Sequence record: MN187550.1 | Source of the DNA: Escherichia phage phiv142-3 | DNA: 39,293 nt | Strand: one strand, 5' to 3' | Shown here: one piece after another, positions 4,654 to 24,069 of the stretch | Numbering within the stretch: the stretch's first letter is position 1 | Layout: each line of letters begins with the position of its first letter | Notes under the pieces: generated by a model | The model's input: only the letters and a program-made list of their open reading frames with translations | Database searches by the model: none | Told to the model about the DNA's origin: nothing | Program-made: the position numbers and the translations under genes

Positions 4654-4757
4654 GTTAAATCTCCAGATAGTCGCAGCACCCGTTGCGCCGCATATCTGGT
4701 TATTCTATTACCTGAAAAACCACATATGGATAGAAAGGCTGTAAATATGAATAGATA

Positions 4758-4772
4758 TTACCTTTCAGGTAA
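4758..4772. promoter_or_regulatory. operator-like palindrome TTACCTTTCAGGTAA (site S1)
   Basis: Perfect 5-bp inverted arms TTACC/GGTAA around a 5-bp centre, in the divergent region between tailspike and the small antirepressor-like gene; flanked by palindromic TTTGCAAA. Confidence 0.6.
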
Positions 4773-4809
4773 TTTGCAAAACGTGCTGGATAGCAAACAA
4801 ATTATTTGA

Positions 4810-4829
4810 TACTGTATAAATATACAGTT
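4810..4829. promoter_or_regulatory. LexA (SOS) box TACTGTATAAATATACAGTT
   Basis: CTGT-N8-ACAG with AT-rich centre, near-identical to the E. coli LexA consensus; sits about 20 bp upstream of the ATG at 4849, inside the spacer after a TTGATA -35-like hexamer. Confidence 0.6.
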
Positions 4830-4848
4830 ATTGCATGGAGAAGATAAG

Positions 4849-5106
4849 ATGCAGCAGTATCACTATCCACTGGAAGACGGATTTACCGAAAGGATTCACA
4901 CGCCGGGAGGCGTCAGGTCACTGGTGGAAGGATCGCACTTGATGAAATTACTCCGGGATCTCGATAAGGATGGATTTAATGTCGATGGCCCACTTGCCGA
5001 ACTGACTGCACTGATTAACTACGTCACCAGCTCACAGATGTCTATGCGGGATCTGCAAACACATCTCGACTATTGTGCCGAACAATTACGAAAACAAACC
5101 AGATAA
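4849..5106 (+). CDS. small protein paralogous to the C-terminal domain of the downstream antirepressor
   Basis: 85 aa from the ATG at 4849 (GGAG 8 nt upstream); the track starts at a TTG at 4831. Residues ...LMKLLRDLDKDGFNVDGPLAELTALINYV...RDLQTH align with ...[29 protein letters not shown]...RDIQTH of the 218-aa protein. Confidence 0.55.
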   Translation: MQQYHYPLEDGFTERIHTPGGVRSLVEGSHLMKLLRDLDKDGFNVDGPLAELTALINYVTSSQMSMRDLQTHLDYCAEQLRKQTR

Positions 5107-5109
5107 GGT

Positions 5110-5152
5110 TTGCAATTACCAAATGGAGTGCTTATATTTACCTTTGCGGTAA
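5110..5152 (+). promoter_or_regulatory. promoter (-35 TTGCAA, 17-bp spacer, -10 TATATT) fused to operator S2 TTACCTTTGCGGTAA (5138-5152)
   Basis: Sigma70-like hexamers read from sequence; the last T of the -10 is the first T of the palindrome. Confidence 0.5.
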
Positions 5153-5242
5153 ATTTACATCGCACTCCTCTTGTGCCATAGTAATCGGGCACTGGCAAAA
5201 TCCAGTGCCGGGATTGGTCTCCCGGATTACTAAGTGGCGCAT

Positions 5243-5265
5243 ACCACGCCAGACGTGGTTTTTTT
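5243..5265 (+). terminator. intrinsic terminator (ACCACG-loop-CGTGGT plus T7 tract) in the antirepressor leader
   Basis: GC-rich hairpin followed by TTTTTTT; preceded by two more hairpins (about 5188-5226); about 160 nt upstream of the antirepressor ATG. Confidence 0.5.
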
Positions 5266-5423
5266 ATGCGTATAGCACAGTCATGCCAGAATTATGGTGG
5301 GCTGAATGGGGGTCCGAAAGGACGCCGGTACCACTTAGGCCGGTAAGACCAACTCCGTTCAGTTCACCACCATCTGATTGGTCTCAGCGGTGGTGATGTA
5401 ATTCGCTAAGTGGAGACGCCATC

Positions 5424-6080
5424 ATGAACGCTCAACTCATCCCCGTATTCAACGGCACTATATCTAACGAAACAGCCCTACTTTGTAATGCCCGCGATCT
5501 GCACGCTTTTTTAGGTGTTAAAAAGGTGTTTGCAGCATGGATTACAAATCGCATATCAGAATACGAATTCATTGAAAATCAAGACTATATTTTGCTTTCC
5601 AATTTGGGAAAGCAAACATCTGGTAGAGGCGGCCACAACCGCAAAGAGTACCACCTCACCCTTGATACAGCCAAAGAGCTGGCGATGGTCGAGCGTAACG
5701 AAAAAGGTCGTCAGGTGCGACGCTACTTCATTGAATGCGAGAAACGTTTAAGACAACAAGAAACAAAAGTGGAGAAGGTCTTGTCAGGCTTCATGCCCGC
5801 CATTATGGAGGCGATCAAGCTGGAAGACAAAAAAGAATACAGCGCCCCACTGAAGCCCGGCTACCGCAGCCTGATTCATTCTCCGTCTGGTGTTCTCGGC
5901 CTGACGGAGAACTCACTGCTGATGAATCTGCTGAACAAGTTACAGGAAGACGGGCACGATGTATCGGGCGCGGCAGCGGAGCTGACCACCATGTTCTGCT
6001 ACATCGTCGGTGTGAGCAAATGCCTGCGTGATATCCAGACCCACGCGGAGTACATCAACGACAAGGCAGGGTTCTTCTGA
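5424..6080 (+). CDS. antirepressor (AntA-like N-terminal domain plus C-terminal domain)
   Basis: 218 aa; N-terminal region (...[10 protein letters not shown]...[17 protein letters not shown]...) resembles phage AntA/AntB antirepressor domains; GGAG RBS about 9 nt upstream. Confidence 0.7.
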
Positions 6081-6124
6081 CGGGCGGTGGCACAGGGATG
6101 TGCCTTTAAATAATTCTGTACAGA

Positions 6125-6167
6125 TTGCAGACTGTGGGTGAATAGCGTACTATTACCTTAAAGGTAA
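6125..6167 (+). promoter_or_regulatory. promoter (-35 TTGCAG, 17 bp, -10 TACTAT) fused to operator S3 TTACCTTAAAGGTAA (6153-6167)
   Basis: Same promoter-operator fusion as at 5110-5152; the operator is immediately followed by AGGAGG and the ATG at 6180. Confidence 0.55.
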
Positions 6168-6179
6168 AGGAGGCGCGAT

Positions 6180-6347
6180 ATGACAGCGTTGAAAAATCGT
6201 ACTCAGCACAATGAACAAGCCAAGCAATGCTGGGATGTCATTGGAAAAGTTATGCTTGGCCGCGCAAGCAAAGAGCGCGACAAGGATATGGTTTACCAGA
6301 CAGGAACATCTTTCAGCGACTTCAAGGCGGCATTTCGCTCCAAATAG
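6180..6347 (+). CDS. hypothetical 55-aa protein (below the ORF-track size cut-off)
   Basis: ATG with strong AAAGGAGG RBS 7 nt upstream; translation MTALKNRTQHNEQAKQCWDVIGKVMLGRASKERDKDMVYQTGTSFSDFKAAFRSK; first gene after the operator-controlled promoter. Confidence 0.5.
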   Translation: MTALKNRTQHNEQAKQCWDVIGKVMLGRASKERDKDMVYQTGTSFSDFKAAFRSK

Positions 6348-6367
6348 AAGCACATCAGGAGTTTTCC

Positions 6368-6808
6368 TTGAAGTTTAACATTAGAATATCTAATAGTTTT
6401 CTACATGGGGAAAGCAACACCCCTTTCGCTGTAGACGGACCTTTCCTTACTGATGATGAAATAAAAATCATACAAAGTTTTTTAGAGGATGTTGCCAATG
6501 GAAGGGCGCTTGTTGGAAAAAACAAGCCCTCGTGGGTTGATGATAACCATGATAAAATTCCCGGCTCAGACAATTATGAGCAAGAGAATTATTGGCATTA
6601 TCATTGTGGGCCAACATGGTATCCAAACACATTTAAGAATTATACCATTAACTTAAATTTCAACCCTGGCGGAAGGCATTCTAATGAATGCATTCATTAT
6701 GCAAAAAATGATAATGAAATTGTCATTGTTGGATTTTCAAGAGAACACATACCTTTCCTTTCATCAGATGGAAACAACAATCCGCTTTTTAATGATGAAG
6801 AAGAATAG
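6368..6808 (+). CDS. hypothetical AT-rich protein (~146 aa), probable TTG start
   Basis: Long open frame in strongly AT-rich DNA (part of ORF 6227..6808); no in-frame ATG after the upstream gene ends; AGGAG 6 nt upstream of the TTG at 6368; followed by an intrinsic terminator. Confidence 0.45.
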   Translation: MKFNIRISNSFLHGESNTPFAVDGPFLTDDEIKIIQSFLEDVANGRALVGKNKPSWVDDNHDKIPGSDNYEQENYWHYHCGPTWYPNTFKNYTINLNFNPGGRHSNECIHYAKNDNEIVIVGFSREHIPFLSSDGNNNPLFNDEEE

Positions 6809-23992: not shown

Positions 23993-24069
23993 GTGGCATT
24001 AGCTCAGTTGGACAGAGCAACCGCCTTCTAAGCGGTTGGTCGCAGGTTCGAATCCTGCATGCCACGCCA
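23993..24069 (+). tRNA. tRNA-Arg (anticodon UCU)
   Basis: Hand-folded cloverleaf: 7-bp acceptor stem GTGGCAT/ATGCCAC, D-arm GCTC...GAGC, anticodon stem ACCGC/GCGGT with loop CTTCTAA, T-arm GCAGG-TTCGAATC-CTGC, discriminator G and encoded CCA. Confidence 0.85.

Follow-up and report, generated by a model that had tools for sequence, protein, structure and literature searches.

The window analysed here, the whole 39,293-nucleotide (nt) stretch of Escherichia phage phiv142-3 (MN187550.1), belongs to an epsilon15/phiV10-like temperate podovirus (Uetakevirus) of E. coli, and we report on the leader of its antirepressor gene ant, which lies between a small open reading frame (ORF) at 4849-5106 (epsilon15 p19-like) and the 218 amino acid (aa) gene at 5424-6080. 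We consider it probable, at about 0.75, that this leader constitutes a complete P1-type 'immI' RNA switch in a Uetakevirus E. coli phage. Judged by its sequence, the combination of the small RNA IsrK and the C4 antisense RNA upstream of ant is an unremarkable and still unannotated instance of a system known since its first description in phage P1. The elements follow each other in the order operator and promoter, a1 and b1 (within IsrK), C4 with its a' and b' words, a2 and b2, and then ant. The closest phage records over 4700-6400 were HEMP4, TL-2011b, ZX5 and phiV10; in E. coli IAI39, whose leader is 99.7% identical over 5100-5430, RefSeq names the downstream gene 'phage antirepressor Ant'.

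An Rfam scan of the whole window at curated thresholds returned three matches, namely a distant tRNA-Arg, isrK (RF01394) and the C4 antisense RNA (RF01695). The isrK match is full length (model positions 1-77) and scored 67.7 bits against a cut-off of 50 (E = 1.5e-12). It comprises hairpin 1 (5189-5208, stem 5189-5195/5202-5208), hairpin 2 (5209-5224, stem 5209-5213/5220-5224) and a terminator hairpin (5243-5259, stem 5243-5248/5254-5259) that runs into seven T residues (T5259-T5265) and was also recovered by a terminator scan. An earlier reading of this DNA from its letters only (the sequence-only reading) had described three hairpins here, the last with a tract of seven T, and an antirepressor ATG about 160 nt further on; all three hairpins fall within 1-2 nt of the positions it gave, the T tract is present, and the ATG of the AntA gene (5424) stands 159 nt past it. 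The fold of 5189-5265 had a z-score of -2.9 in a shuffle test and that of the whole leader (5183-5430) a z-score of -5.4, with 0 of 200 shuffles as stable. The covariation across relatives that the same reading had proposed as a check was found in hairpin 1, where 6 of the 7 pairs show compensatory changes in an alignment of 17 homologous sequences (the set described below). Rfam scores, fold z-scores and covariation together ruled out chance hairpins. IsrK hairpins 1 and 2 also overlap a full-length match to c4-a1b1 (RF03163, 'a1, b1 targets of C4 antisense RNA') at 5176-5228, which was obtained at a relaxed threshold (E = 3.7e-8).

The stretch of about 160 nt before ant had been taken for plain spacer, and a second structured RNA, C4 (5290-5374), was thereby overlooked. 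Mature C4 is predicted to span 5296-5371 (76 nt), by alignment to the ends of the 77-nt P1 C4 annotated in GenBank, and its predicted architecture consists of a 17-base-pair outer stem, two inner hairpins and a tRNA-like 3' ACC(A). Its fold z-score was -5.5 (0 of 200 shuffles as stable), and the outer stem was 100% paired in the 17 sequences, with four covarying pairs. By analogy, C4 is the element most likely to repress ant. The 3' strand of the outer stem can also enter an alternative hairpin that places a2 in its loop; the helix within 5364-5396 has 8 pairs, 97.8% paired in the 17 sequences, has a P1 counterpart in the pair CCTGCCACC/GGTAGCAGG, and would compete with the outer stem of C4 as long as the transcript is unprocessed. 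On the minus strand, the C4 region folded no better than shuffles (z = -0.7). We rejected a sar-like minus-strand RNA given this z-score, the lack of any minus-strand Rfam match within 5183-5430 and the fact that the conserved elements are all on the plus strand; the contrast with the sar RNA of P22 that the sequence-only reading had drawn is borne out by the same strand-specific scan, nothing being encoded on the opposite strand here. Its further suggestion that the arrangement differs structurally from known systems has to be abandoned, as the leader is of the P1/P7 c4 type and both RF01394 and RF01695 score above their Rfam cut-offs.

The words that would link the two RNAs are short. C4, as predicted to fold, leaves a' and b' unpaired, and their complements occur twice, a1 and b1 in IsrK being exact copies of a2 and b2 downstream of C4. 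The a1 word is the core of a 10-nt word, GATTGGTCTC, at 5212-5221 that is repeated at 5376-5385, just after C4, and predicted folds present a1 and a2 in an identical A[UUGGUC]U loop context. The ant Shine-Dalgarno sequence that b2 overlaps is placed 8 nt ahead of the ATG.

We assessed these complementarities in a set of 17 sequences, consisting of the window and 16 phage loci taken from GenBank records (phiV10, APSE-7, HEMP4, TL-2011b, Klebsiella Kp4865-1, a Yersinia phage, phi315, VT2-Sakai, phiP27, the Gifsy-1-like Salmonella SW-37, several Stx phages, PhiR12 and PhiR47). In 16 of the 16 other loci isrK was followed by C4 about 24 nt later, and in all of them an ATG preceded by b2 follows the cassette, the annotated cases being named Ant, Bro-N or Rha. 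The a1:a' helix has 7 pairs, of which 5 were changed on both sides, with 98.3% of cells paired; 5 of the 7 pairs of the a2:a' helix were likewise changed on both sides, with about 97.5% of cells paired. When the 3' partners were shifted by 1-3 columns, the paired fraction fell from 85-89% to 29-48%. Since the b sites differ in length and align poorly, we compared duplex energies instead. The mean for b':b1 was -11.6 kcal/mol for cognate versus -4.3 kcal/mol for non-cognate combinations, and for b':b2 it was -12.6 versus -5.9 kcal/mol; the cognate b1 target ranked first for 16 of the 17 C4 RNAs, and over both comparisons the cognate target came first in nearly all rows. In the MAFFT alignment the stems of the terminators are misplaced, as is C4 hairpin 1 of the window, which is short, so that their paired fractions (56% and 39%) are artefacts and do not speak against these helices; a GC stem and T-run were nevertheless seen in each locus individually.

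A pattern scan of IMG/VR gave at least 120 stretches, and among the matches listed we used 78 unique parsable loci, which between them contain 14 types of a' and 32 of b'. A match of at least 6 nt at all four sites was seen in 68% of the cognate sets as opposed to 0 of 1234 non-cognate sets. A b2 match of at least 6 nt was present in 94% of these viral loci, and a T-run within 50 nt upstream of C4 in 100%. The three-way a/b complementarity thus exists and co-varies across many phages.

We noted further features of cassette organisation. The cassette is kept while the family of the downstream gene switches between AntA (the window), Bro-N (phiV10, our locus L001, and APSE-7, L002) and Rha (PhiR47 and Stx phages; L013, L016), and the mosaic joint between RNA cassette and downstream gene lies at or just past b2 and the ribosome-binding site. 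One locus (L053:9289-11266, minus strand) carries three tandem isrK-C4-gene modules 656 nt apart, with differing a'/b' words, each abutting an ORF of 219-220 aa, and two isrK-C4 modules each were seen in loci L037 and L119.

Table 1. Features of the ant leader and its surroundings in the window, with the evidence for each.
Feature	Position	Strand	Evidence
Upstream promoter-like site, TTGCAA-17-TATATT	5110-5138	+	Consensus scan, 9/12 matches
Candidate operator palindrome TTACCTTTGCGGTAA (TTACC-N5-GGTAA), between the upstream -10 and the IsrK -35	5138-5152	.	Motif count, conservation
Probable IsrK promoter: -35 TTTACA (5154-5159), 17-nt spacer, extended -10 TGcCATAGT (5174-5182)	5154-5182	+	Consensus scan, homologues
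IsrK-family small RNA: hairpin 1, hairpin 2, single-stranded linker, intrinsic terminator	5189-5265	+	Rfam RF01394, terminator scan, fold
a1, TTGGTCT, loop of IsrK hairpin 2, complementary to a'	5214-5220	+	Sequence, covariation
b1, CTAAGTGG, IsrK linker, complementary to the C4 loop b', identical to b2	5230-5237	+	Sequence, duplex energies
C4 antisense RNA	5290-5374	+	Rfam RF01695, 61.2 bits (cut-off 45), E = 1.3e-9, full length, model positions 1-87
b', CCACTTAG, 9-nt loop of C4 hairpin 2	5331-5338	+	Unpaired in predicted C4 fold; complements b1 and b2
a', AGACCAA, single-stranded between C4 hairpin 2 and the 3' strand of the outer stem	5346-5352	+	Unpaired in predicted C4 fold; covaries with a1 and a2
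Alternative hairpin: C4 outer-stem 3' strand TCACCACC (5364-5371) with GGTGGTGA (5389-5396), a2 in loop	5364-5396	+	Minimum-energy folds
a2, TTGGTCT, identical to a1, 4 nt past the Rfam C4 match	5378-5384	+	Sequence, fold, covariation
b2, CTAAGTGG (5406-5413), overlapping the ant Shine-Dalgarno GGAG (5412-5415)	5406-5415	+	Sequence
ant, antirepressor gene under control, 218 aa	5424-6080	+	AntA/AntB domain, Pfam PF08346 AntA, E = 4.2e-26

The promoter region is organised around a palindrome that recurs throughout the phage. With at most one mismatch, TTACC-N5-GGTAA occurs 15 times in the window where 0.7 occurrences are expected, a count reached by 0 of 100 shuffles; the copies start at 1787, 4758, 5138, 6153, 23656, 26454, 26472, 29902, 29964, 31909, 32246, 32294, 33006, 33068 and 39129, and several are paired at distances of 18-62 nt. 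Three of them (4758, 5138 and 6153) precede consecutive plus-strand genes at 4849, 5189/5424 and 6180. The copy before IsrK is at the same position in phiV10, HEMP4, TL-2011b and Kp4865-1, and its core is nested in a longer imperfect inverted repeat at 5125-5168 (GGAGTGC...TTACC-N5-GGTAA...GCACTCC); in phiV10 the same position has a perfect palindrome with 17-base-pair arms (L001, about 1928-1966). A pattern with a 6-nt spacer was also tried and gave no matches, the correct spacer being 5 nt. Taken together, the copies resemble a dispersed operator serving a single phage repressor, comparable to that of C1 in P1, where C1 and Op51 likewise combine a dispersed operator with tandem promoters. 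The palindrome at 6153-6167 overlaps the Shine-Dalgarno region of a 55-aa ORF (6180-6347) that has no family match and could, from this position, be a small regulator under the same repressor. The window also encodes a phage tRNA-Arg (anticodon TCT) at 23993-24069, with an operator-like palindrome (23656) about 320 nt upstream.

Two promoter-like sites flank the candidate operator. The upstream one, whose TATATT is kept in Uetakevirus relatives, may be equivalent to the operator-controlled promoter P51a of P1. At the second, the distance from the -10 hexamer to IsrK position 1 is 6 nt, equal to the spacing in 16 homologous loci that include lambdoid ones and the Gifsy-1-like SW-37, and we therefore take 5154-5182 as the probable IsrK promoter, with a start near 5189 and a product of about 77 nt. 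The sequence-only reading had proposed an operator-fused promoter at 5110-5152 and a transcript of about 120 nt. A promoter-like site at 5110-5138 does abut the palindrome, as it had stated, but the homologues place the IsrK promoter at 5154-5182, and with this promoter the terminated IsrK RNA is expected to measure about 77 nt rather than 120. Our consensus scan found no promoter-like site between the IsrK terminator and the AntA gene.

Put together, these elements suggest the following course of events. Transcription would start near 5189, from a promoter abutting the phage-wide operator palindrome, and most transcripts would end at the terminator (5243-5265), giving a roughly 77-nt IsrK with a1 in a hairpin loop and b1 in the linker. 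Transcripts that read through would contain C4 (5296-5371), which would be excised, RNase P presumably making the 5' end as in P1. C4 would then expose a' and b', whose complements recur just downstream as a2 and b2, the latter on the ant Shine-Dalgarno sequence, and pairing of C4 with the ant leader would block Ant translation and so maintain lysogeny. IsrK, bearing copies of the target words, would compete for C4 both as part of the same read-through transcript (in cis) and as the separate short RNA (in trans), and an excess of IsrK would allow Ant to be made. In this scheme C4 processing and translational repression are modelled on P1, trans activation by IsrK and the need for terminator read-through on the homologous Gifsy-1 locus of Salmonella, and repressor control of the promoter on the homologues. 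A more specific version, to which we give somewhat less than even odds, is that IsrK mimics the ant initiation region (the A[UUGGUC]U loop plus the CUAAGUGG word) and acts as a sponge for the C4 generated when transcription passes its own terminator. Whether Ant is made would then depend on how often transcription stops at 5265 relative to how often it continues; this cassette, with neither icd nor orf45, would need nothing more as a switch, and by extension both the Gifsy-1 orf45/STnc1160 and the Pfam family PF10554 of lambdoid phages would be readings of the IsrK-C4 cassette and not independent protein genes.

Several observations weigh against the proposed P1-type switch. Taken singly, the a'/b' duplexes of the window have only a modest advantage over shuffled targets, of which 25 to 215 in 1000 do equally well; this single-sequence test is not discriminating, and the case for pairing consequently rests on the comparative data. 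The c4-a1b1 match scored 39.9 bits, below its cut-off of 46.7, where P1 scores 51.0 bits. The frame of orf45, a gene of the Gifsy-1 locus, closes after three codons in the window (ATG at 5294, GTG, GGC, TGA at 5303), so the orf45-coupled activation mechanism proposed for Gifsy-1 is not transferable as it stands. P1 needs translation of icd for ant expression, and the window has neither an icd nor an orf45 gene between C4 and ant, nor any ORF between 5374 and the ATG at 5424. With the orf45 frame closed and icd lacking, C4 must act directly on the ant ribosome-binding site, if at all. Finally, the related RNAs of P4 and N15 reportedly act by premature transcription termination and not by a translation block.

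This last point leads to the alternative that survives best, which we nonetheless regard as unlikely: control of the P4/N15 type, in which C4 bound to nascent a1/b1 would raise termination at the IsrK terminator and/or cause polarity at a2/b2, so that ant would be set by read-through and IsrK would be mainly an attenuator by-product and not a decoy. Besides the P4 CI and N15 CA precedents, translational repression of icd in P1 leads to Rho-dependent termination. The position of b1 would suit such a role, as it lies only 5 nt upstream of the terminator stem and the fold of isolated IsrK pairs part of it (UGGCG, 5234-5238) into the terminator region, so that occupancy of b1 could alter terminator folding; by eye, however, this pairing is not evident in the relatives. 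The authors of the Gifsy-1 study mention control by termination as a possibility for STnc1160, a stable RNA from the C4 region (PMC4825925), but in their hands the operon was transcribed and not translated (280 versus 4 Miller units), and constitutive STnc1160 strengthened rather than weakened IsrK-mediated growth arrest (PMC4825925). Moreover, in almost all loci the b2 word extends over the Shine-Dalgarno sequence or the start codon of ant, which a translational block predicts and upstream attenuation does not need.

Still less probable, in our estimation, is a role in cis only, where a1 and b1 would work solely inside the read-through transcript, guiding C4 folding or processing or keeping C4 inert until its excision, and the short RNA would do nothing in trans in this phage. 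Folded at minimum energy, the whole leader does pair a1:a' and b1:b' in cis, a fold that corresponds to the silent 'structure A' of Gifsy-1, which is backed by compensatory mutations (PMC4825925), and the P1 annotation labels a1/b1 merely as 'putative' target sites. Yet in Gifsy-1 anrP translation rises more than 100-fold when IsrK is provided in trans, and the IsrK mutants G28A and G31A are inactive (PMC4825925). A terminator T-run stands right after b1 in 100% of the 78 viral loci listed and is recognisable even in P1, and this conserved terminator argues that the short RNA itself is under selection.

We give almost no credence to a protein-coding reading, in which the hairpins would be incidental and the product would be either an 'Ash family' protein or that of a 107-aa ORF (5073-5396), which begins with TTG and stays open through both RNAs. 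We rejected it, together with a 26-aa ORF at 5266-5346: no family match was obtained, Pfam and NCBIfam both being negative for the 107-aa ORF, and the frames are closed in relatives, that of the 107-aa ORF by 3-8 stops in the nearest ones (HEMP4, phiV10, TL-2011b and Kp4865-1). Although the ZX5 record has an 'ash family protein' beside its antirepressor gene, Pfam PF10554 (Phage_ASH) matches the translated isrK-C4 region in lambdoid phages and orf45 is translated in Gifsy-1 (PMC4825925), the Ash/orf45 frame has 6 stops in the window, where PF10554 reaches 20.7 bits against a cut-off of 26, and only with stops masked, and the variation of the region obeys RNA pairing rules.

Two observations on coding in other phages are recorded here in their own right. 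The PF10554 'Ash protein family' match in lambdoid 'Ant/Rha' proteins covers exactly the stretch of isrK, C4 and leader (L016:880-1902, residues 73-168; also L013:770-1918, L009:1131-1790 and L015:1051-1713), and PF10554 may be a conceptual translation of the RNA cassette. In a lambdoid subclass of about 50 of the 98 unique isrK-C4 loci (e.g. L009, L011, L013-L016, L024, L033, L053 and L119), the C4-ATG frame is free of stops across promoter, isrK, C4 and leader and runs open into the downstream Rha/Ant gene for many a'/b' types, while other frames have up to 7 stops; this does not apply to the window. Either the RNAs are embedded in a real coding region in these phages or the openness is simply inherited.

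The cassette was present in 467 of 5,426 complete E. coli genomes, in 68 of them at 99% identity or more, and in IAI39 the IsrK-C4 region is a 317-nt gap upstream of Ant (NC_011750 2757085-2757401; L138) that RefSeq/PGAP leaves unannotated. Recognising this gap as IsrK plus C4 would give such prophages a testable induction/anti-immunity switch, and cross-repression of antirepressors between prophages should depend on their short a/b words, following P1/P7 heteroimmunity, which reportedly rests on variable words of this kind. For the Uetakeviruses, the one functional paper we found concerns ZX5, where lysogen titres drop about 1000-fold upon overexpression of the antirepressor; the paper makes no mention of the RNAs (PMC9782041). 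A 2025 review still lists P1 c4 and Salmonella IsrK as separate, unrelated entries, and the comparison made here joins the two literatures.

The immI region of P1/P7 is the closest counterpart of the ant leader in its order of elements: operator, tandem promoters, a1/b1, C4 with a'/b', a2/b2 and the antirepressor gene. In GenBank, P1 shows operator Op51, promoters P51a and P51b, a1, b1, the 77-nt C4, a2 and b2 ('repression of icd ant translation', with b2 over the icd ribosome-binding site), icd and ant1/2. The P1 C4 is reportedly cut from a read-through transcript and is said to block translation via a2/b2. The C4 RNAs are homologous (RF01695, 68.8 bits in P1 and 61.2 bits in the window), and both phages have b2 on a Shine-Dalgarno sequence and an alternative downstream partner for the 3' strand of the C4 stem, with a2 then in the loop. 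The window differs in that b2 lies directly on the ant ribosome-binding site and icd is absent, and it thereby departs from the icd-containing C4 arrangement of P1/P7; an icd-less layout is also found in APSE-7 and in Uetakevirus loci. Its antirepressor is an AntA-domain protein as opposed to Ant1/2, and its host phage an integrating podovirus of about 39 kilobases, unlike the plasmid prophage P1. In the window a1 and b1 belong to a full IsrK that ends in a strong terminator, whereas the P1 equivalent scores low against the isrK model. This P1 a1/b1 leader (L017:4231-4312) gave a full-length isrK match of 35.1 bits (E = 8.5e-6), below the cut-off, and has a terminator-like hairpin and T-run that are unannotated in the P1 record. 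From their sequences, IsrK, the P1 a1/b1 leader and c4-a1b1 appear to be one element.

The isrK-orf45-anrP-isrJ locus of Gifsy-1 in Salmonella (Hershko-Shalev et al. 2016) resembles the window in its homologous three-hairpin IsrK with terminator, in the antirepressor gene downstream and in the complementarity of IsrK to the downstream RNA. There the isrK promoter drives the antirepressor gene only by terminator read-through, the long RNA being translationally silent (PMC4825925). The sequence-only reading had left the choice between a discrete small RNA and a read-through attenuator; both halves agree with this locus, where IsrK is a short terminated RNA and the read-through product is the antirepressor mRNA (PMC4825925), but the likely repressor of ant is C4 and not the three hairpins. 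In Gifsy-1 the silent fold is regained when the mutation G28A is compensated by C162U, or G31A by C159U (PMC4825925); by position in the SW-37 sequence, G28/C162 and G31/C159 appear to lie in a1 and a', and the published 'helix b-I' would then be the a1:a' pairing. As the Gifsy-1-like SW-37 has isrK, C4 and isrJ in order, the 'orf45' region of Gifsy-1 is the same stretch as the C4 match, and probably also as the stable RNA STnc1160. The authors ascribe activation to translation of orf45, which runs through the C4 region and is coupled to anrP, and their model has no C4-type repression of the antirepressor ribosome-binding site (PMC4825925). The window, with its early-closed orf45 frame, further differs from Gifsy-1 in having no isrJ downstream and no antQ upstream.

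APSE-7, a Hamiltonella phage, shares with the window an isrK, a C4 and putative a'/b' annotated in GenBank upstream of an antirepressor-like gene, again with no icd, but differs in its a/b words (GAGAC and CTAACAAGG types), in having Bro-N and not AntA, and in a leader identity of about 72%. The immI region of P22 (sar, arc, mnt, ant) is comparable in that a small RNA limits the antirepressor of a short-tailed temperate phage beside the tailspike gene; sar, however, comes from the other strand and runs over the ant ribosome-binding site, whereas in the window all elements are on the sense strand and the complementarities are short and dispersed. The P4 CI RNA (seqA/seqB/seqC) and N15 CA RNA resemble the C4 arrangement proposed for the window in being processed sense-strand RNAs between upstream and downstream copies of their target, and are cited by the Gifsy-1 authors as structural homologues of IsrK/STnc1160 (PMC4825925). 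Mechanistically the window is new only in its absence of icd and orf45, and the system is already known: its families are curated in Rfam, the cassette including a'/b' is annotated in APSE-7, and the mechanism has been studied in P1 and in Gifsy-1.

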